DNA of 64,000 nt from an uncultured Armatimonadia bacterium (GCA_964549395.1 CAZJVY010000001.1:59990-123989), one strand, 5' to 3'; shown: positions 32,772-64,000, numbered from the stretch's first letter. Made by a program: numbers and translations. Notes: generated by a model not told the origin, from the letters alone.

Positions 32772-33761
32772 ATGGTCAGGCAACTACCGTCTGTTACACT
32801 AAAATCCGGCGAGACGGCCGAGATCTTCAAGGTCACCGGCCCGGAGCCGGAATGGGAGGAGAGGCTGCTATCGCGGCTGTCACACAAGGGAAGGCTGTGG
32901 GACAGGCCGATGCAGCAGGCACTACGGGGCGGCCTGCCGGGGATGAAGATGCACTTTTACCAGATGCGCCTGGATGACCATGCGGTGGGCAACATCACCG
33001 TAGTGGAGGCGTTGGAGCGGCCTGTGGCCTTGCTGCAGCATGTGTTCACAGACCCGGAGCATCGCCGGAAGGGCATCTGCAACCACTTGATGACGCTGGT
33101 GACGGATGATTTCGTGGCGGCCGGTGGGCGTGCGATGTACCTTGGAACGGAGTACGAAGGCCCGGCTTTTCGGATCTACCAGGAGTTCGGCTTCCGGGCC
33201 ATCGGCGAGGGCGGAGCCATGGTGTGGGCGCCGGATGACGGATACCCCGACAGCTTCTTCGTGCAGGGACCGGTGCAAGTGAGACCGGCGCAGTGGGGCG
33301 ATTGGCCCCTTCTGACCGCGCTCTATCAGCGTGAAGAGGGCTGGGATCTGCGAGGCTACATCCTCGGCCACTTCGGACACAGCTCATATGAAAGCGCATT
33401 CTGCAGGGTGGAGGAGCTAATCGAGGCGGGTAAGGCGGAGCAGTCTACGGTGCTACAGATCGAGGAGACCGGCGCCGTCGCGGGACACGCGTTCCTGGGG
33501 AAGGATGAGAAATGGCCTGACGGGCCGTGGGTTCTGGATTTCTTCGTGCATCCGCTCTTCACCGAGCGGACTGGTGAACTGCTGCAGGCCATCGAGTTCC
33601 CGGCAGGTCGCAAGGTGCAGGCATACTGCGATGAGGCCGCTGAGGACCGCGCGGAGGCGTTACGGGGGGCTGGGTTCAGCCTGGAGGCAACGCTTCGCGG
33701 GCAGTACAGCACCAAGGACGGCAGGCTGGTAAATGTACACGTTTACGCAAGGCAGGGGTGA
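32772..33761 (+). CDS. Tandem-domain GNAT N-acetyltransferase
   Basis: VFTDPEHRRKGI acetyl-CoA motif, A..IY..FGF, and a second degenerate GNAT domain. Confidence 0.8.
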   Translation: MVRQLPSVTLKSGETAEIFKVTGPEPEWEERLLSRLSHKGRLWDRPMQQALRGGLPGMKMHFYQMRLDDHAVGNITVVEALERPVALLQHVFTDPEHRRKGICNHLMTLVTDDFVAAGGRAMYLGTEYEGPAFRIYQEFGFRAIGEGGAMVWAPDDGYPDSFFVQGPVQVRPAQWGDWPLLTALYQREEGWDLRGYILGHFGHSSYESAFCRVEELIEAGKAEQSTVLQIEETGAVAGHAFLGKDEKWPDGPWVLDFFVHPLFTERTGELLQAIEFPAGRKVQAYCDEAAEDRAEALRGAGFSLEATLRGQYSTKDGRLVNVHVYARQG

Positions 33762-33771
33762 GAGTCGGCAC

Positions 33772-35199
33772 ATGAATCTGGTACTGATTGTCAGCGACAC
33801 GTTAAGATGGGACTATCTCGGCTTCTATGGCAACGAATGGATCGAGACACCGAATCTGGATAGCCTGGCATCGGAGAGCGCGATCTTCGTTGAGGCATAC
33901 GCCGAGGGACTGCCGACTCTTCCGGCCAGACGGTCCATTTTGACGGGGCGCGTCGTGTCGCCGGCGCGGTACATCAGGCAGCTCAGCGATGCGGTACAGA
34001 ACTACGGGTGGCATCCGCTATTCGATCAGGACGTGACTGCCGCCGAATGGCTCCAGACGAAGGGGTACTGCAGCGGCTTTGTGACGGACGTGTATCACAT
34101 GATGAAGCCGGGGAAGAACTACCATCGGGGGTTCGACTACTGGGAGTGGATACGCGGGCAGGAAGGGGACATGTATGCCCTGCGGGACAAGAAGCAAGTA
34201 TGGGATATGCTGGAGCAGACCACTTGTGGTGCCGAGAGCATGGGGGAGGACCACTGGGCCGTCCAGCACCTGATGCTGCGGCAGGACTGGCAGAGCGATG
34301 CGGATACATCGGTGGCCCGGGTGATGAACACTGCCGCCCGCTGGCTAGAGAACTACACACTGGACAAGCCGTTCTTTCTGTACGTGGACTGCTTCGACCC
34401 GCACGAACCGTGGGATCCGCCGGCGGAGTACGCGGAGGCATACTATGCCGACTATCACGGCTACTACGGAGTCTGCCCGCCTGGGTCGGTCAGTGACGTG
34501 ACGGATGAGCAGTTCGAGTGCATCAAGGCGGCGTATGCAGGCGAGGTCACGCTGGTTGACGCCTGGGTCGGTCACCTGCTGGCGACGCTGGCTGAAGAAG
34601 ACTTGATGGATGATACGCTGATCGTCTTCACCTCGGATCACGGAACCATGATGGGGGAGCAGGGGGAGCTTCACAAGGGGGAGAGCCGCCTGCGCAACCA
34701 GTGCACGCGAGTGCCGCTGCTCATCAGGCATCCCGGAGGGGAGTTGGCCGGCGAGGAGATCGAGGGCCTTGTTCAGCATCACGACATACTGCCTACGGCC
34801 CTCGGTGTAATGGGCCTGGATGTGCCGCAACGGGCGACAGGCAGCAACATATGGCCCATGGCGCTGGGGGAGCAGGAGCCGGAACGGGACAGCGTGTTCA
34901 TCGGCTGGAGTCGCTACTGCAGCGTGCGGACGAGGGACTGGAATCTCGTCATACCATTGTGGGAGGAATTCCTGGGAGATGCGGAGCCGGTCCGCGAGCT
35001 GTACGACTTGCGGAACGACCCGGAGGAGCTGACGAACGTGATTGAGGATCATGCCGATGTCGCCCGCGAGCTGGCCGAACTGGCCCAGTCGTACATAGAG
35101 CGGCAGGGTCCGCTGACAGTCGGCACGATCCAGGATGTGGACCCGAGGATGGGCCAGGATGTGCGGATAACGTTCGACGCCTTGCCGCCGCAGAGGTAG
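33772..35199 (+). CDS. Sulfatase-like alkaline-phosphatase-superfamily hydrolase (Thr at nucleophile site)
   Basis: SDTLR, PTLPARRSILTG, DPHEPWDPP, TSDHG, ELYDL..DP.E. Confidence 0.88.
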   Translation: MNLVLIVSDTLRWDYLGFYGNEWIETPNLDSLASESAIFVEAYAEGLPTLPARRSILTGRVVSPARYIRQLSDAVQNYGWHPLFDQDVTAAEWLQTKGYCSGFVTDVYHMMKPGKNYHRGFDYWEWIRGQEGDMYALRDKKQVWDMLEQTTCGAESMGEDHWAVQHLMLRQDWQSDADTSVARVMNTAARWLENYTLDKPFFLYVDCFDPHEPWDPPAEYAEAYYADYHGYYGVCPPGSVSDVTDEQFECIKAAYAGEVTLVDAWVGHLLATLAEEDLMDDTLIVFTSDHGTMMGEQGELHKGESRLRNQCTRVPLLIRHPGGELAGEEIEGLVQHHDILPTALGVMGLDVPQRATGSNIWPMALGEQEPERDSVFIGWSRYCSVRTRDWNLVIPLWEEFLGDAEPVRELYDLRNDPEELTNVIEDHADVARELAELAQSYIERQGPLTVGTIQDVDPRMGQDVRITFDALPPQR

Positions 35200-56597: not shown

Positions 56598-58946
56598 TCA
56601 GCAGCGCAATCGCAGCGCGCAGAGCAGGAGCAGAGCACATGCCAGAACGCCACAGAGCAGGGCGGCTCCGGCAACACCGAACAGCGGCACGAGCAGCGCA
56701 CCGGCCAGCACAGCGCCGGAGCTGGCACCGAGCAGGTCAGCAGCGTACATCGCGGCGGCGACAGGCCCCCGGTTCTCCATCTGCCCGCCCGCCTCGGTCG
56801 CCAGCGGGAACTGGACACCGACCAGGAGACCAAGGAATAGTGACACGAAGAAGAAGCCGACTGTCAGCGACCAGGTGGTCTCGCCGGGCATGAGAACGCC
56901 AACGCCCTGGAGCAGCGGAGTGAAAACGAAGGCTGTTGCGGCCAGGACGCCGAGAGCCACGCACAAGTGCACGAGAGCGGCTCGTGCGCCGGGGTTACGA
57001 GCCACCAGGCGGCCCGCAAGCAGGCCGCCGGCCGCCAGCCCGACCATGAAAGCGCCGCTGAGGACGCCGATGAGGCTGTAAATGTGGCCGACGTACACCT
57101 GGAAGCCGTACAGGACGCCCAACTGCAGGACCATACCGATGAAGCCGGTGCCCGCGATTGCGATTGGCACAGCGAAGCGGCGCGCGCATCGAGAGACGCC
57201 GGCGAGGGCGACCAACAGGAGGCTGAAGGCAAAAGTCACGCCGAGTGCGAGTTGCCAGGAGATGCCGGCCGCCCATTCCAGCGCCCTAGCTCCGAGCGGA
57301 TGGAATTGGCGCATCGCGTATACCTGATTGTAGAAGTAGGCGATGGGGCGCAAGTCGGTATTGAGCGGCGAGCGCGGGAAGGCGTCGAGCTGTTGCCGCA
57401 CAAAGGCTATGTTCATGGGCTCCAGATGGTCGTAGATGACCGATTCCCAGAACGGGGCGCTGACGCCACGCTGGTGGAGGCGACGCAGTATCTCGTCGGG
57501 GTCCTCCGTGAAATACGCACTGTCCGGGCCTACAACGGCATAGAGGCTGTAGGTGGGCATGAGCACGGTGCAGTAGTTAGGAGCGACCTCGGCTGCGTCG
57601 AGGAGCGTGGTATCGAGGCGGAGTAGGTCGGCGCTGTAGTAGGTCTGAGTGCCGGGCAGTTGAAGACCGATGACCGTAGCAGGTGAGGCGGCTGCTACCT
57701 GCTGCAGGCAGTCACGGGTGTAGTAGCGGTTGAGCAGCGCAGTAAGCGGGGACGGAAGGGCAATGATGGCCGCATCCCACTTCGGGAGGTCGCCGCTATG
57801 GGCGCGACTGCGCAGATAGGAACGGAGGTCCTGTGGCCAGATGTGGGCCCTGTCAACAGGAATGGCCCCACGGTAGTCCTCATACACCCGCAGCAGGCCG
57901 GGATCAAGTTCGAAGTAGTCGAGAGACTCGATGTCGTACTTCAGGGCTTCGGCGACTGCACCCGTACCCAGGCCGCCGACCACCAGCACGCGACGCGGAT
58001 GCGGATGCTGGAGCATGGTGAAATGGACGAGGAATTGAGTATCGGGCATCGTTTCAGTATATGCAGCAGGTTCTCCATTGATGAAGAAGACCTTACCAGC
58101 TTCGCCATGTTTCGCTACGACGATGTTGCTTTGCAGTGTGTCCACATTGGCTATCAACTCATACCCGTGCCAGCGCACCGCGAGGGTGTAGTCATCGAGA
58201 AGGACCGCACCGTGCAGTAGCACCGGAGCAAGCAGGAGGATGGCGATGGCTGCGACACGCAGGGAGATGCGTTGTCTGGGTGGACTGAGCGCCCCACAGA
58301 CCGCAAGTGTCGCGAGGAGAGACAGCAAGCCGGCCGCCGTGACAGCCGTGTACGGGTCCAGGACGGTGGTGAGCAGATAGGCGGCGGCCGTGCCACCGAC
58401 GAGGTGCCCGGCCGCATCTATGGCATAGGACCTGGCGATAGGGGAAGGTCCGGCGCGCAGGCGGGCGTAGAGGGAGATTGCAGAACCGAACTGGGCCTCG
58501 ACAACGAATGCGGCAGGAAATGTGCCCACGACTGTGAGGAGGAGTACCTGCAGCAGACCGAACATCTCGCCGCGTCGCGCGGCCAGCATCACTGGTAGCT
58601 TTGGGAAGAGCTCGGGGCTGATGCGGATGAGGCCGATGGCGGCCAGCGAGGCCAGGAGCGAAAGACAGGTCAGAAGCAGCAGCCGAACCGCAGTCACGGC
58701 AGTGGCGCGGTCGGCCTTCGCCTGACGGCCCGCCCACCAGCAGCCGAGAGCGCCGCTGAAGAGCCACACGCCGAGGATGATGCCGACCGTCAACTCGCTG
58801 CCGGAACAGACGATCAGAAGCTGGCGGATGAGGACGACCTGTATGATGCCGCAGCAGAGGCCGATACAGAAGATGGCAAGATTTATCGGCCAGACGGCAG
58901 GGCTGCTGTCCTCGAACGGCGCATCCGTGGTCGGTTGCGGTGGCAT
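56598..58946 (-). CDS. Membrane-fused spermidine-synthase-like (class I SAM-fold) protein
   Basis: N- and C-terminal multi-TM blocks flanking VLVVGGLGTG..E..K....D.FELDP and the N.D.RP motif. Confidence 0.8.
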   Translation of the reverse strand: MPPQPTTDAPFEDSSPAVWPINLAIFCIGLCCGIIQVVLIRQLLIVCSGSELTVGIILGVWLFSGALGCWWAGRQAKADRATAVTAVRLLLLTCLSLLASLAAIGLIRISPELFPKLPVMLAARRGEMFGLLQVLLLTVVGTFPAAFVVEAQFGSAISLYARLRAGPSPIARSYAIDAAGHLVGGTAAAYLLTTVLDPYTAVTAAGLLSLLATLAVCGALSPPRQRISLRVAAIAILLLAPVLLHGAVLLDDYTLAVRWHGYELIANVDTLQSNIVVAKHGEAGKVFFINGEPAAYTETMPDTQFLVHFTMLQHPHPRRVLVVGGLGTGAVAEALKYDIESLDYFELDPGLLRVYEDYRGAIPVDRAHIWPQDLRSYLRSRAHSGDLPKWDAAIIALPSPLTALLNRYYTRDCLQQVAAASPATVIGLQLPGTQTYYSADLLRLDTTLLDAAEVAPNYCTVLMPTYSLYAVVGPDSAYFTEDPDEILRRLHQRGVSAPFWESVIYDHLEPMNIAFVRQQLDAFPRSPLNTDLRPIAYFYNQVYAMRQFHPLGARALEWAAGISWQLALGVTFAFSLLLVALAGVSRCARRFAVPIAIAGTGFIGMVLQLGVLYGFQVYVGHIYSLIGVLSGAFMVGLAAGGLLAGRLVARNPGARAALVHLCVALGVLAATAFVFTPLLQGVGVLMPGETTWSLTVGFFFVSLFLGLLVGVQFPLATEAGGQMENRGPVAAAMYAADLLGASSGAVLAGALLVPLFGVAGAALLCGVLACALLLLCALRLRC

Positions 58947-58991
58947 CTTACACCAACAGTAACGGCTCGGACCGGCATTCATTACGGAAAA

Positions 58992-59016
58992 CGGGGCCGC
59001 GGCATCCGCGGCCCCG
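58992..59016 (-). terminator. Intrinsic terminator downstream of tRNA-Ala
   Basis: CGGGGCCGCGG/CCGCGGCCCCG 11-bp stem followed by TTTT on the minus strand. Confidence 0.8.
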
Positions 59017-59024
59017 GCATTGTC

Positions 59025-59100
59025 TGGTGGACGGAAAGGGGTTCGAACCCTCGACCTCATCCGTGCGAGGGATGCGCTCTCCCAACTGAGCTATCCGCCC
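59025..59100 (-). tRNA. tRNA-Ala (anticodon CGC)
   Basis: Full cloverleaf: GGGCGGA/TCCGTCC acceptor with the G3:U70 alanine identity pair, D arm GCTC/GAGC, anticodon loop CTCGCAC, TTCGAAC T-loop, discriminator A, encoded CCA. Confidence 0.97.
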
Positions 59101-60374: not shown

Positions 60375-62258
60375 CTACCCGGCCGGCTCAGGCTCCGGCA
60401 TCGGCACAAACCGCTGCAGACATTCGGCGTGCCGCTGGCGCAATCCCTCAAAGACACTTTCTCTGGAGTATATCAGGAGCATCTCGACGGGATTTGCGGC
60501 GGCGTTGAACTTCACCGTCGAATCCTTAATATCGGCCGGGATGTCGGGCAGGCCGCCGGGGAAGCGCATCCGCACAACCCCTGCCGCCTTCATGAAGGAC
60601 GGCAGCCGCACGCGTACTGCTGCGGCCGGTGTCTCGGCGCGAATGAACTGCTCGGGCGTGGACTGGAAGTCCTTGTTGACGAGAATGACCACCATAGCCT
60701 TGTCGCCGCACAGGATGCAACTGCTCAGATAGTTGCCGCCGTCCACAAGCGGCTCGCCGACGGGAATACCGATGGAGGTGAGGGGCAGCACCTGTTGGAG
60801 GATGCCGTTGACCTCGCCGACGGCGTTCCACATCTTGGGATGCTTGAGCAGGCCGTTAGTGCCGTGGGCCGGGTACCATTGCAGCGACTTGGCGCCGGAC
60901 GCCAGTGCCGTGTACACCTCAATGCGCATCTCGTCGGGATCGAACTCACGCTCTTTGTTAGCGCAGTAGCCGTCATTCAGGTAGTAGAAGGGCCTGGGAC
61001 GGCTCGCCGCCTGGGTGTTCAGGACGTGGTCCTGCGTCGGCTCGATTATCCCGCGTCCGAGCGCATAGGCGTGGGCGCAGATGTAGTCGGGTATCTGCCC
61101 GTAGACGTAGAGGTTGCGCGGGTAGCCGCCGTGGTCTATCTGAAGATAGGTGGGGTGCGCCAGGTCGAATATGCGGCAGAACTGATTGGCCCGCTCCACA
61201 TCGCGTGAGATGGAGAGCCTCGGCAGGTCGGTGTTATGGTAACGACCGTCAGGCTCATCCTCCAGGAAATAGGCCCACAGTGCTTCCTGTTCCTTGATTG
61301 GCGCGACTTGCTCCACGTTGTCGTAATAGACAGGCTCTCGCTTCTTCTCGCCGGGCTTGAGGCTGCGGCCGTAGATATATGCGCCGCCGAGGCCGTACTT
61401 GCTGAGCATCGGATATGAAGTGGCGGGCACTGCCGTGAAGGCGATGGTCGCATCGAACAGGTGATTGGCGTATTGCTGAAGCTCGCTCTCATGGTTGTTG
61501 CCCATGATCCCCAGCGGGGCAGGTGAGGGCAGGGCCCGTATCAGTACTGCCCGCAGATCGTCGGCTGTGCCGATGGCGACGGCGTGGAAGCTACCCTTCT
61601 GCCAGGAGTCTTGCAGCTTGACCTGTGCATAGGTGTATCCGGAGAAGACGGTATGGATATCTGCTTCCGCACTCCGACCATCAAGCTCCACACGCAAGAT
61701 GTCCATATCAGCACCTGCCTGGCTGCGGGTATATATGTGCAGCTCGTCCAGATTCTCGCCGATGCCGACGTACTCAAGCGTGAAAGACGGTTCGGACATG
61801 CTCACCACAGCGGTGAGTGGTTCCTGACCGGCCGCGGTGAGTGACACTTCATGTTGCGCCGCCTCGCAGGCCGTAGAATCGAGGCGCAGTATCACCTCTG
61901 CGATGCCGCCTGCAGGTACGGGATTGGGATAGACGCGGTACCATGCCACCAGGTCGTTTTCAACGGGAATGTACTGATCCCTCACGTCCGGCTGCAGGAA
62001 GCTCTCGTCGGTTTTCCATACCTTGCCGATGGATTTGCCGTCCAGTGCGATGTCGGTGATCGCCAAGGGAGCATTCGTCGTGTTCTTGAGGTACACGAAG
62101 ATGCTGCCTGCGTACTCAACCGCATCGGGTACGTAGTAGGCGGTATAGATGGCCCCCGTCCCACTTGAGACTGCCACACAGGAGCTTACGGAGAGCACGC
62201 CCACCACAGCCACCAGTTGGACAATGAACTTCCTTCCCTTATGCGACACGCCAAACAC
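60375..62258 (-). CDS. Secreted/lipoprotein with N-terminal beta-rich domains and a putative glycoside-hydrolase-like barrel, paralog E
   Basis: Signal with VSSC lipobox-like site; WAYFLEDEPDG, PDYICAHAY, GAKSLQWY motifs; paralog of the next gene. Confidence 0.6.
   Translation of the reverse strand: MFGVSHKGRKFIVQLVAVVGVLSVSSCVAVSSGTGAIYTAYYVPDAVEYAGSIFVYLKNTTNAPLAITDIALDGKSIGKVWKTDESFLQPDVRDQYIPVENDLVAWYRVYPNPVPAGGIAEVILRLDSTACEAAQHEVSLTAAGQEPLTAVVSMSEPSFTLEYVGIGENLDELHIYTRSQAGADMDILRVELDGRSAEADIHTVFSGYTYAQVKLQDSWQKGSFHAVAIGTADDLRAVLIRALPSPAPLGIMGNNHESELQQYANHLFDATIAFTAVPATSYPMLSKYGLGGAYIYGRSLKPGEKKREPVYYDNVEQVAPIKEQEALWAYFLEDEPDGRYHNTDLPRLSISRDVERANQFCRIFDLAHPTYLQIDHGGYPRNLYVYGQIPDYICAHAYALGRGIIEPTQDHVLNTQAASRPRPFYYLNDGYCANKEREFDPDEMRIEVYTALASGAKSLQWYPAHGTNGLLKHPKMWNAVGEVNGILQQVLPLTSIGIPVGEPLVDGGNYLSSCILCGDKAMVVILVNKDFQSTPEQFIRAETPAAAVRVRLPSFMKAAGVVRMRFPGGLPDIPADIKDSTVKFNAAANPVEMLLIYSRESVFEGLRQRHAECLQRFVPMPEPEPAG
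61672..61754. repeat. 83-bp exact direct repeat, copy 1 (copy 2 at 63603-63685)
   Basis: Identical run CTCCGACC...TCCAGATT inside the near-identical N-terminal halves of paralogs E and F. Confidence 0.9.
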
Positions 62259-62299
62259 CTACCTTTGAATATGTTGTAGCGACTGGCACGACCATGCAT

Positions 62300-64000
62300 T
62301 CAGGCATTGTCATCAGGTTCGGGCATGGGCACAAAGCGCTGCAGGCAGCCTTCCCGCGTGTTGCGCATCTCCTGCAGAACCGCGTCATCGGTATATATGA
62401 CCAGAATCTTGCCCGCCTGAACCTGCGTAGTGAACGCGACGGTTGAACTGGCGATATCTGCCTCAATCTGTACCGTTTCTTCTGGGAAGTTCGCCTCTGC
62501 TACGCCTACGGCCTGCATGAAACTCGGTAGCCGGACGCGGACATTGGCGGTCGCCGGGTTGAGTGTGAAGCTCTGGGCATCGGCAGTGAAGTCCTGGTTG
62601 ACCAGCACTACAACCACGGCATTGTCACCGCACAGGATGGCGCTGCCGAGCAGGTTGCCCCCGTCAATGCGTGGGGCACCCAGCGGCACTCCGACCGACA
62701 CCAGCGGCAGCACCTGATGCAGCACCCCATTCATGGCGCCGACTGCATTCCACATCTTGGGATGCTTAAGGAGGCCGCTGTTACCGTGGGCCGGATACCA
62801 CTGCAATGACTTGGCCCCCTCAGCGAGGGCGGTATGAACCTCCAGGCGCATCTCGAGGGGGTCAAAGTCGCGGGTGTCCTGACGGGCGCAGTAGCCACAG
62901 TTGAGATAGTAGAACGGGTGCGGACGCGCGGCGTTGCGGGTGTGGAAGACATGGTCCTGGGTTGCGGTGATAACCTTGGGGCCGCCGAGCGCGTACGCAT
63001 GGGTGCAGATGTAGTCAGGTATCTGCCCGTAGATGTAGAGGTTGCGCGGGTAGCCGCCGTGGTCTATCTGTAGATAAGTCGGGTGCGCCGGGTCGAATAT
63101 GCGGCAGAATTGGTTGGCGCGCTCCACATCACGGGATATAGAGTGACGATGGAGAACCGTGCGGTGGTATCGGCCATCCGGCTCGTCTTCAAGGAAGTAC
63201 GCCCAGAGGGAGGGCAGGTCCTTGATCTGCTCCAGCGCCTCAGGTTGATCGTAGTAGACCGGTTCCTTCTTCTTCTCTTCCTCCGGCTTCAGGTAGCGGC
63301 GGTAGATGTATGCTCCGCGCAGACCGAACTTCTCCAGCCGCTCGTAGGTCTCGGGCGAGGCCGGGCCGAACGCGATGTTGGCGTCGAACAGATGGGTTCG
63401 GTACTCTTCCAGAACGCGCTCCTGCGTGTTGCCCATGATGGCCAGCGGCGCAGGTGATGGCAGCGCCCGTATGAGCACTGCCCGCAGATCGTCGGCTGTC
63501 CCAATAGCGACGGCGTGGAAGCTGCCCTTCTGCCAAGGGTTTTGCAGCTTGACCTGTGCATAGGTATATCCGGAGAAGACAGTGTGGATATCAGCTTCCG
63601 CGCTCCGACCATCAAGCTCCACACGCAAGATGTCCATATCAGCACCTGCCTGGCTGCGGGTATATATGTGCAGCTCGTCCAGATTGGCGCCGATGCCGAC
63701 GTATTCAACAGTGAAAGATGGCTCGGACATGCTCACCACGGCGGTGAGTGATTCCTGACCGGCCGCGGTGAGTGATACCTCATGCTGCGCTACCTCACAA
63801 GCCGTGGAATCGAGCCGCAGTATCACCTCCGCAATGCCGCCTGCAGGTATGGGATTGGGGTAGACGCGGTACCATGCCACCAGACTATTCTCGACGCAGA
63901 TGTACTGATCTCTCACGTCCGGCAACAGGAAGCTCTCGTCGGTCTTCCATATCTTGCCGATGGATTTGTCGTCGAGTGCGATGTCGGTAATCGTCAAAGG
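62300..64000 (-). CDS. Putative glycoside-hydrolase-like protein, paralog F (5'-truncated at window edge)
   Basis: Colinear with paralog E along its whole length; frame open to the window edge. Confidence 0.6.
   Translation of the reverse strand, partial: PLTITDIALDDKSIGKIWKTDESFLLPDVRDQYICVENSLVAWYRVYPNPIPAGGIAEVILRLDSTACEVAQHEVSLTAAGQESLTAVVSMSEPSFTVEYVGIGANLDELHIYTRSQAGADMDILRVELDGRSAEADIHTVFSGYTYAQVKLQNPWQKGSFHAVAIGTADDLRAVLIRALPSPAPLAIMGNTQERVLEEYRTHLFDANIAFGPASPETYERLEKFGLRGAYIYRRYLKPEEEKKKEPVYYDQPEALEQIKDLPSLWAYFLEDEPDGRYHRTVLHRHSISRDVERANQFCRIFDPAHPTYLQIDHGGYPRNLYIYGQIPDYICTHAYALGGPKVITATQDHVFHTRNAARPHPFYYLNCGYCARQDTRDFDPLEMRLEVHTALAEGAKSLQWYPAHGNSGLLKHPKMWNAVGAMNGVLHQVLPLVSVGVPLGAPRIDGGNLLGSAILCGDNAVVVVLVNQDFTADAQSFTLNPATANVRVRLPSFMQAVGVAEANFPEETVQIEADIASSTVAFTTQVQAGKILVIYTDDAVLQEMRNTREGCLQRFVPMPEPDDNA
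63603..63685. repeat. 83-bp exact direct repeat, copy 2
   Basis: Identical to 61672-61754. Confidence 0.9.

Follow-up and report, generated by a model that had tools for sequence, protein, structure and literature searches.

What do two adjacent genes encode when their products resemble glycoside hydrolases (GH), carry a pair of neighbouring acidic residues and lack the residue expected to act as nucleophile? The question is raised by one end of a 64,000-nucleotide stretch of DNA from an uncultured Armatimonadia bacterium (GCA_964549395.1, CAZJVY010000001.1:59990-123989; the whole of this stretch is hereafter called the window). A first-pass annotation, made from the sequence alone, had noticed at positions 60,375 to 64,000 a tandem pair of unassigned GH-like proteins with an adjacent Asp-Glu motif and no clan GH-A nucleophile, and had proposed a new family of secreted enzymes resembling the N-acetylhexosaminidases of GH20 and GH123. 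We find that both proteins belong to an undescribed and unannotated family that descends from clan GH-A and whose catalytic machinery is altered. Fold, clan and general function are already of known kind; no annotation covers the family itself, and in its catalytic machinery it departs from its nearest relatives. The two genes lie in tandem and co-directionally on the minus strand, and their products share 73% identity over 565 residues:

60375..62258, minus strand: paralog A (P0001), a lipoprotein-type GH-like protein of 627 amino acids (aa) with a GTG start, stop codon included in the coordinates
62300..64000, minus strand: paralog B (P0002), whose C-terminal 566 aa fall inside the window; the gene runs past the window end

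In the contig, the full paralog B extends about 190 bases beyond the window, starts with MDMLSRC and totals about 629 aa. The database entry identical to paralog A is a 624-aa cluster.

Annotation resources are silent on these proteins, which bears out the description of them as unassigned and as a new family. Searched against Pfam-A at E values up to 10, both gave noise only, NCBIfam gave no match, and a sequence search of the PDB returned a single chance match; the noise of these searches included Mucin_bdg (E 0.18), GH30C (E 0.056) and uroporphyrinogen synthase (E 1.2). In the literature, the term was absent from the papers listed for a DEPD motif. The family is nonetheless large. A word-indexed protein search found 46 relatives, all labelled 'hypothetical protein', the named ones coming from metagenome-assembled genomes of Armatimonadota. 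An exhaustive search of 1.84 billion cluster representatives retrieved 343 at E<=1e-3, of which 151 also pass E<=1e-10; most identities are 22-33%. Among 81 sampled Armatimonadota genomes, 30 contain members (E<=1e-8), with up to eight matches per genome. When 60 distant relatives were compared with Pfam at E<=0.01, the 25 most frequently matched families listed included no catalytic domain, and the modules found were accessory ones of a kind usual in carbohydrate-active enzymes, namely NPCBM, F5/8 type C, CBM_4_9, Laminin_G_3, PA14, BNR and fn3.

The fold was addressed with AlphaFold2 models of paralog A, for the whole protein from a 27-row alignment (pLDDT, the per-residue confidence score, 89.7; pTM, the score for overall topology, 0.89) and for the barrel alone from 66 rows (pLDDT 94.7). 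Both models hold a confident (beta/alpha)8 barrel, in agreement with the TIM-barrel fold on which the first-pass annotation had staked its proposal. The barrel is framed by beta-sandwiches:

61530..62156, minus strand: two N-terminal beta-sandwiches of A, residues 35-243 (DSSP secondary-structure assignment on the model)
60768..61529, minus strand: presumed catalytic domain of A, a (beta/alpha)8 barrel at residues 244-497 (model, structure matches and hhalign)
60378..60767, minus strand: C-terminal part of A, residues 498-627, comprising a beta-sandwich (498-597) and a terminal helix (600-616) (DSSP)

A VIA-align structure search was run against 48,161 PDB representatives, of which the best 50 matches were considered. 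Those of the barrel are almost all clan GH-A-type glycosidases, at Z 15.8-20.8:

6t5o, GH164: Z 20.8, root-mean-square deviation 3.5 A over 256 residues
4ucf, GH42: Z 20.8, root-mean-square deviation 3.0 A over 260 residues
5xb7, GH42: Z 20.0
GH5, GH2, GH35, GH157 and GH1 structures: Z 15.8-19.8

Foldseek with the barrel is in agreement, and GH42 leads the VIA-align search with the whole model at Z 17.7. In Foldseek with the whole model, the first ranks were taken by GH66 dextranases and cycloisomaltooligosaccharide glucanotransferase (CITase). We set aside a kinship with these enzymes and ascribe their rank to a shared sandwich-barrel-sandwich layout, since the barrel on its own is matched by GH-A families instead. 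Structures of GH20, GH18, GH84, GH123 and beta-NGA enzymes are absent from the best 50 matches of both VIA-align searches, an absence that we do not count as evidence.

Profile comparison narrows this broad structural likeness to a single family. With profiles built from Armatimonadota sequences (27 of GH42, 18 of GH20 and 20 of GH123), hhalign matches the family to GH42 at 96.6% (E 5.8e-10) over residues 358-492, from beta-5 to alpha-8. The only PDB chains that family profiles reached in sequence searches belong to GH42 (E 0.0098-0.53), and neighbours in the feature space of a protein language model (ESM-Atlas) are GH42-like clusters. On these comparisons, the barrel is homologous to that of GH42, pointing to descent from a GH42-like clan GH-A barrel. 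The three motifs noticed in the first-pass annotation are present in both paralogs, and they fall on the positions that matter for catalysis in GH42:

61245-61271 (A) and 63173-63199 (B), minus strand: YFLEDEPDG
61248..61259, minus strand: D334-E335-P336-D337 of A, end of beta-4, with the presumed acid/base Glu and its Asp neighbour
63176..63187, minus strand: DEPD of B (sequence motif)
61065-61091, minus strand: PDYICAHAY of A
62993-63019, minus strand: PDYICTHAY of B
61065..61073, minus strand: H396-A-Y398 of A, end of beta-6, corresponding to the GH42 W-D-x-Y motif (hhalign)
60969-60989, minus strand: FYYLNDG of A, on beta-7
60972..60977, minus strand: N428-D429 of A, end of beta-7, where N428 replaces the GH42 nucleophile Glu (hhalign)
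62894-62914, minus strand: FYYLNCG of B, on beta-7, with Asn-Cys at the nucleophile-equivalent site

By DSSP, FYYLND is beta-strand 7 of the predicted barrel, and hhalign places N428 on the nucleophile Glu of the GH42 L-M-E motif, which supports the first-pass reading of this site as the vacant nucleophile position. H396-x-Y398 is aligned with GH42 D-x-Y, and D391 with a conserved GH42 Asp. D334-E335 falls on the Asn-Glu of the GH42 acid/base in an extended, low-confidence alignment, and DSSP is consistent with this placement, as strand beta-4 spans residues 327-334 and the pair lies at its C-terminal end. The Asp-Glu pair therefore appears to occupy the canonical acid/base site. From these alignments, the acid/base Glu is kept as E335, the Asn preceding it has become Asp (D334), and the beta-7 nucleophile Glu has been replaced by Asn or Cys.

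To what extent do these features hold beyond the two genes? Conservation was scored on 140 domain-covering rows aligned to the family hidden Markov model, from 47 close and 93 distant relatives. D334, E335, P336 and D337 are invariant in the close relatives and kept in 94%, 89%, 97% and 84% of the distant ones, a degree of retention that makes a chance motif untenable. Over all rows, D334 is kept in 134, E335 in 130 (with Asp in nine more), P336 in 137, D337 in 125, D391 in 136, Y398 in 134, R437 in 130, E443 in 132 and G455 in 138. Position 375 is Asp in 105 rows, Asn in 19 and Cys in eight, and position 396 is His or Asp in about 90%. The beta-7 site behaves quite differently from the DEPD motif. 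At position 428 the close clade has Asn or Cys, and other members have Leu, Pro or Thr; the pairs at 428-429 in the 47 close relatives are NC (16), CE (11), NE (7) and ND (4), plus rarer ones, and over the 140 rows no carboxylate is conserved at 428 or 429. Because position 429 varies across the clade, Asp429 of paralog A is not a conserved catalytic residue. The absence of a clan-A nucleophile thus extends to the superfamily, and an adjacent Asp-Glu pair without a beta-7 nucleophile is, on this alignment, a property of the whole superfamily rather than of two genes. Outside the barrel, 60 of 60 distant relatives retain W106 of the first N-terminal sandwich, and 58 of 60 retain P111.

Which known enzymes work in this way? 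GH123 and four related groups of beta-NGA enzymes (1-4) consist of an N-terminal sandwich and a barrel with a consecutive Asp-Glu motif; they employ substrate-assisted catalysis, bind N-acetylgalactosamine (GalNAc)-thiazoline, and lose activity when the Asp-Glu motif is mutated, the published mutagenesis primers encoding ADEPV and SDEPG (Sumida et al., 2024, PMC11087588). The proposed link to GH123 is a weak one. With a wide GH123 profile, hhalign gives 26.9% (E 6.8e-4), a weak match that is co-linear from beta-5 to beta-8. The GH123 set reads h-A-M-D-E-x-P on beta-4 and x-Y-V-C-C-G-P on beta-7, this family L-E-D-E-P-D and Y-Y-L-[NC]-x-G-Y, and GH42 S-N-E-Y and x-L-M-E-Q, so that an Asp-Glu pair followed by Pro and a Cys or Asn at the old nucleophile site are shared with GH123. 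What does not support the link is the weakness of the match and the lack of DUF4091 (PF13320, GH123_cat), which neither P0001 nor P0002 matches at E<=10 and which does not appear in the list of the 25 families that the 60 relatives matched most often (E<=0.01). As kinship, the suggested link to GH20 does not survive: hhalign with the 18 Armatimonadota sequences gives 0.1% (E 0.48), and neither protein matches PF00728 at E<=10, so we reject it. GH42 and GH123 match each other at 46.8% (E 2e-4), compared with 0.4% (E 0.13) for GH20 and GH123.

One CITase-like protein, DSSM_1, described as having no Asp-Glu motif (PMC11087588), was considered as a possible member of the family, and its entry has no DEPD motif. 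As a separate observation, GH123_cat (PF13320) is strikingly expanded in Armatimonadota: 53 of 81 genomes contain it, and a single genome can have as many as 19 matches.

It might be argued that the proteins are merely divergent members of GH20, GH123, GH163/GH185 or GH42 that profile libraries miss. The 96.6% hhalign match to GH42, the weak co-linear match to GH123 and the common Asp-Glu motif would fit such a view. Against it, besides the GH20 result and the marginal E values of the GH42 chains in the PDB (0.01-0.5), stands the finding that neither protein matches PF02449 (GH42) or PF16126 (DUF4838, the GH163/GH185 profile) at E<=10 any more than PF00728 or PF13320, and that all four profiles are equally unmatched for the 60 relatives (E<=0.01, among the matches listed). 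Moreover, the GH42 Asn-Glu and the nucleophile have both changed, and the domain order is unlike that of GH42. We consider this explanation highly improbable.

The loss of the nucleophile, combined with the change of Asn to Asp before the acid/base, would be the combination seen in families in which a 2-acetamido group on the substrate serves as nucleophile. Since no enzyme nucleophile is available, we propose that the substrate supplies it, and substrate-assisted cleavage of a beta-linked N-acetylhexosamine (HexNAc) is to us the most likely single mechanism, held with somewhat less than even confidence. In this mechanism, E335 would protonate the leaving group while the beta-linked HexNAc's 2-acetamido group, polarised by D334, would attack C1; the reaction would pass through an oxazolinium intermediate with net retention, as in GH123 and beta-NGA enzymes and, convergently, in GH20. 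Where the nucleophile once stood, the small Asn or Cys may line the acetamido pocket together with Y426, Y398 and Y462. In a low-confidence alignment, Y426 and Y462 fall where NgaLy has its conserved substrate-contacting Y392 and W431. The substrate would probably be an extracellular glycan, possibly a sulfated one, and we would guess that four neighbouring proteins with carbohydrate-binding modules (CBM) are candidate captors of it.

Several observations weigh against this mechanism. The GH123 match lies below any safe threshold and falls to 1.1% (E 0.047) with a narrower profile. Y426 is conserved in the close clade only and not in distant members. The sulfatases that neighbour family genes resemble Gal-3S, carrageenan-type and arylsulfatases as much as HexNAc sulfatases, and the neighbourhoods point to sulfated glycans generally rather than to HexNAc specifically; at the window's own locus, the nearest sulfatase to the pair is about 25 kb away. 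The genome, which is 94% complete, has no nagA above cut-off and no GH18, so GlcNAc (N-acetylglucosamine) catabolism is not evident in it; it does contain one GH3, one match to GH123_cat and, at 39-47 bits, two weak matches of GH20 type. Finally, the conservation of E443 (94%), R437, D337 (89%), D375 (75%) and His or Asp at 396 makes another mechanism possible. Two lines of argument were tried and abandoned: when the neighbouring sulfatases were typed against solved structures, the specificities proved mixed and fixed no substrate, and the argument that this genome 'needs' a hexosaminidase failed on the weak GH20-like genes, the GH3 and the GH123-like gene that are present as well as on the missing nagA and GH18.

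These conserved acids are the ground for a different account, in which the same new GH family would work with two enzyme carboxylates, E335 (or D334) and a relocated base or nucleophile, on a sugar without an acetamido group, in a polymer such as a sulfated galactan or fucan. The enzyme could be inverting, with E443, D375 or D337 as base, or resemble alpha-glycosidases, with a nucleophile on beta-4 and an acid/base on beta-6 (H/D396). One candidate pair for such an alternative catalytic or binding role is the following:

60930..60950, minus strand: R437 to E443 of A, in the beta-7/alpha-7 loop and the start of the helix (conservation, DSSP)

In the model, each of the residues concerned lies either at a strand's C-terminal end or in a beta-alpha loop, conserved at 75-94% for positions 337, 375, 437 and 443 and at about 90% for Asp or His at 396, and distant members carry an acid-rich DEPDxx[DE] site. 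Nor do sulfatase, GH2 and alpha-galactosidase-like neighbours call for HexNAc, and nagA was not found in the genome. On the other side, homology of the barrel to GH42 makes E335 the acid/base by descent, the nearest structures are nearly all of the type with an acid on beta-4 and a nucleophile on beta-7, with no alpha-galactosidase or amylase type in the best 50, and neither D375 nor position 396 is strictly conserved. The change of Asn to Asp alongside a lost nucleophile is also the pattern of the known substrate-assisted families (PMC11087588). A two-carboxylate enzyme is therefore a doubtful proposition, though one to be taken seriously, and substrate-assisted cleavage remains our preferred mechanism.

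Are both genes functional? Comparison of A with B, expressed as the ratio of nonsynonymous to synonymous substitution rates (dN/dS) by domain, gives:

N-terminal domains, residues 64-243: dN/dS 0.10, 93% aa identity, dS 0.40
Barrel: dN/dS 0.125, 72% aa identity, dS 1.6
C-terminal domain: dN/dS 0.33, 50% aa identity, dS 1.36, the least conserved part

Both copies are functional and under purifying selection. The similarity has a sharp step, the segments 61530-62066 (A) and 63573-64000 and beyond (B) being the closer ones; as the paralogs resemble each other far more in this N-terminal stretch than in the barrel, the comparison suggests partial gene conversion between the paralogs or a later partial replacement.

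The value for the barrel bears on the idea that these are catalytically dead, carbohydrate-binding pseudo-glycosidases acting in concert with the CBM proteins next to them. Lectins have evolved more than once from GH-A and GH18 barrels, the canonical nucleophile is lost here, and the genes stand beside four enzyme-less CBM_4_9 proteins. However, the acid/base Glu and at least eight polar residues at strand ends are kept in at least 140 sequences at 20-30% identity, where lectin derivatives usually lose such residues; with this, the barrel dN/dS of 0.125 and the occurrence of family genes together with sulfatases and exo-glycosidases in degradative clusters, a dead enzyme is decidedly improbable.

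Both proteins are probably extracellular, A anchored as a lipoprotein and B with an ordinary signal peptide, so far as can be judged by eye, which is also the extent to which the first-pass description of them as secreted is supported. In paralog A the evidence is a signal peptide with a lipobox:

62178..62258, minus strand: signal peptide of A, with the lipobox VSSC (residues 24-27, Cys27) at its end, recognised by eye

A basic and hydrophobic stretch runs up to VSSC, helix 6-24 of the AlphaFold model corresponds to this signal segment, and many relatives have a Cys at the same place as the lipobox Cys. The N-terminus of paralog B is hydrophobic and signal-like.

Location is relevant to a further possibility, that of a GH-A-type barrel enzyme other than a glycoside hydrolase (for example a phosphorylase, transglycosylase, esterase or phosphodiesterase) that has decorated glycans as substrates. 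The lost nucleophile would suit it, GH112 phosphorylases being GH42-like barrels without a nucleophile, and a GDPD phosphodiesterase and esterases occur among the neighbours of relatives. But GH112 enzymes are cytoplasmic and the signal peptides argue against a phosphorylase; an acid/base Glu in the canonical place, aromatic platform residues and fusions to CBM and NPCBM modules fit the cleavage of glycosides best, and no other enzyme class comes near the top of the structural matches. We regard such an enzyme as improbable.

What does the neighbourhood add? The genes downstream of the pair, sharing its strand, encode a CBM_4_9 protein, an 820-aa SpeE-like membrane protein, three more CBM-type paralogs, an M42 peptidase and a CE4 deacetylase. 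Upstream, past the window end, are two pseudopilin-like genes (N_methyl, DUF1559) at L002:3485-4102 and L002:4185-4805. Within the window, two of the neighbours can be placed as follows:

56598-59060, minus strand: 820-aa polytopic membrane protein with a spermidine-synthase-like domain
33733-35199, plus strand: sulfatase (PF00884, 152 bits), one of about 13 in the genome

The order of pseudopilin-like genes, family gene (one to three copies), SpeE-like gene, CBM gene or genes, M42 and CE4 recurs in four other genomes at 52-75% identity, the SpeE-like membrane protein lying between the GH-like and CBM genes at 53-70% identity. Pseudopilin-like genes (N_methyl with DUF1559 or SBP_bac_10) are found directly upstream and on the same strand in at least eight loci, further examples being L003, L004, L008, L012, L013, L065 and L071. 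Such synteny may indicate a link with secretion or glycan capture.

Sulfatases adjoin other members of the clade (L005/L067; L007/L009, with a GH2+CBM60 protein; L011, with an esterase). In three further Armatimonadota genomes, a PF00884 sulfatase lies within 5 kb of eight of 12 family genes, where 3-9% would be expected per gene; a conservative binomial over nine independent loci gives 0.006. One cluster runs through a family gene, a GH32/43-like gene, a second family gene, two sulfatases, DUF2961 and more sulfatases, and another comprises a BNR protein, a GDPD phosphodiesterase and an NPCBM-melibiase. Distant members are found in dense clusters with up to seven sulfatases in 16 kb:

G020:C7:100263-121795 (L090)
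G073:C1:531767-547304 (L088/L089)
G047:C30:18614-34678

Because members lie in clusters of sulfatases and glycosidases, the family at large may be assigned a role in glycan breakdown, probably of sulfated glycans.

Other genes were noticed in passing. Two further conserved proteins of 620-675 aa without a Pfam match adjoin family genes in several loci (L007:12063-14087, plus; L009:12054-14162, plus; L006:12175-14040, minus; L072; L073). In two genomes of one genus, a family gene has, 2-3 kb away, a GH123_cat-containing gene of about 890 aa (G073:C4:89114-89746 and G047:C36:106333-106965), and on the opposite side of that G073 family gene, L092:11520-14066 carries GH20b and CBM9 domains.

If active, the proteins would constitute a new glycoside hydrolase family that annotation by Pfam, NCBIfam and PDB sequence does not see, one that is widespread both within and outside Armatimonadota and lies in gene clusters with many sulfatases and carbohydrate-active enzymes. 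For practical use, the family is a candidate from which new activities on sulfated or amino-sugar glycans might be obtained. A GH-A barrel that has kept its acid/base Glu, lost its nucleophile and exchanged Asn for Asp has undergone the change expected on the way from a retaining glycosidase toward a substrate-assisted hexosaminidase. Because GH123 is nearer to GH42 than to GH20 in profile comparisons, the family could show the origin of GH123-type enzymes. Tentatively, we suggest that GH42-like barrels gave rise to a lineage of beta-N-acetylhexosaminidases or endo-hexosaminidases with substrate-assisted catalysis that stands between GH42 and GH123, a new family at the level of CAZy (at least 343 clusters at 50% identity) residing in sulfated-glycan loci with stand-alone CBM and pseudopilin-like proteins.

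How, then, does the family compare with known systems? With GH42, which comprises beta-galactosidases and alpha-L-arabinopyranosidases of clan GH-A, it shares the acid/base Glu after beta-4, D-x-x-x-x-[DH]-x-Y on beta-6 and G-A-x-G before beta-8. It differs in having Asp-Glu for Asn-Glu, in the residue at the site of the nucleophile Glu, which is Asn or Cys but Leu, Pro or Thr in distant members, and in a beta-7/alpha-7 loop four residues shorter, whereby the GH42 Trp is lost. The layout differs as well: GH42 enzymes have the barrel first and form trimers, whereas in this family a far smaller barrel (about 255 aa) is preceded by two N-terminal sandwiches. The barrels of the GH164 beta-mannosidase and of GH5, GH2, GH35, GH157 and GH158, which use a Glu on beta-4 and a Glu on beta-7, are the best structural neighbours, at sequence identities of 8-14%.

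GH20, the beta-hexosaminidases of clan GH-K, also has an adjacent Asp-Glu pair at the beta-4 end of a TIM barrel and no enzyme nucleophile, a likeness that would be convergent. The 6-sulfo-GlcNAcases of GH163 and GH185 are substrate-assisted, act on sulfated HexNAc and are distant relatives of GH20 (PMC10570127); given the sulfatase neighbours, a functional parallel is conceivable, although theirs is a GH20-related barrel and that of the present family GH42-like. GH123 and the beta-NGA enzymes are set apart by the DUF4091 profile, which this family does not match. They share with it an N-terminal beta-sandwich followed by a (beta/alpha)8 barrel, a conserved Trp in the N-terminal domain, Asp-Glu and then Pro at the end of beta-4 (ADEPV, SDEPG or MDExP there, EDEPD here), and Tyr-x-Cys/Asn-x-Gly on beta-7 at the site of the GH42 nucleophile. 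By this analogy, GH123 rather than GH20 would be the best mechanistic precedent for the family.

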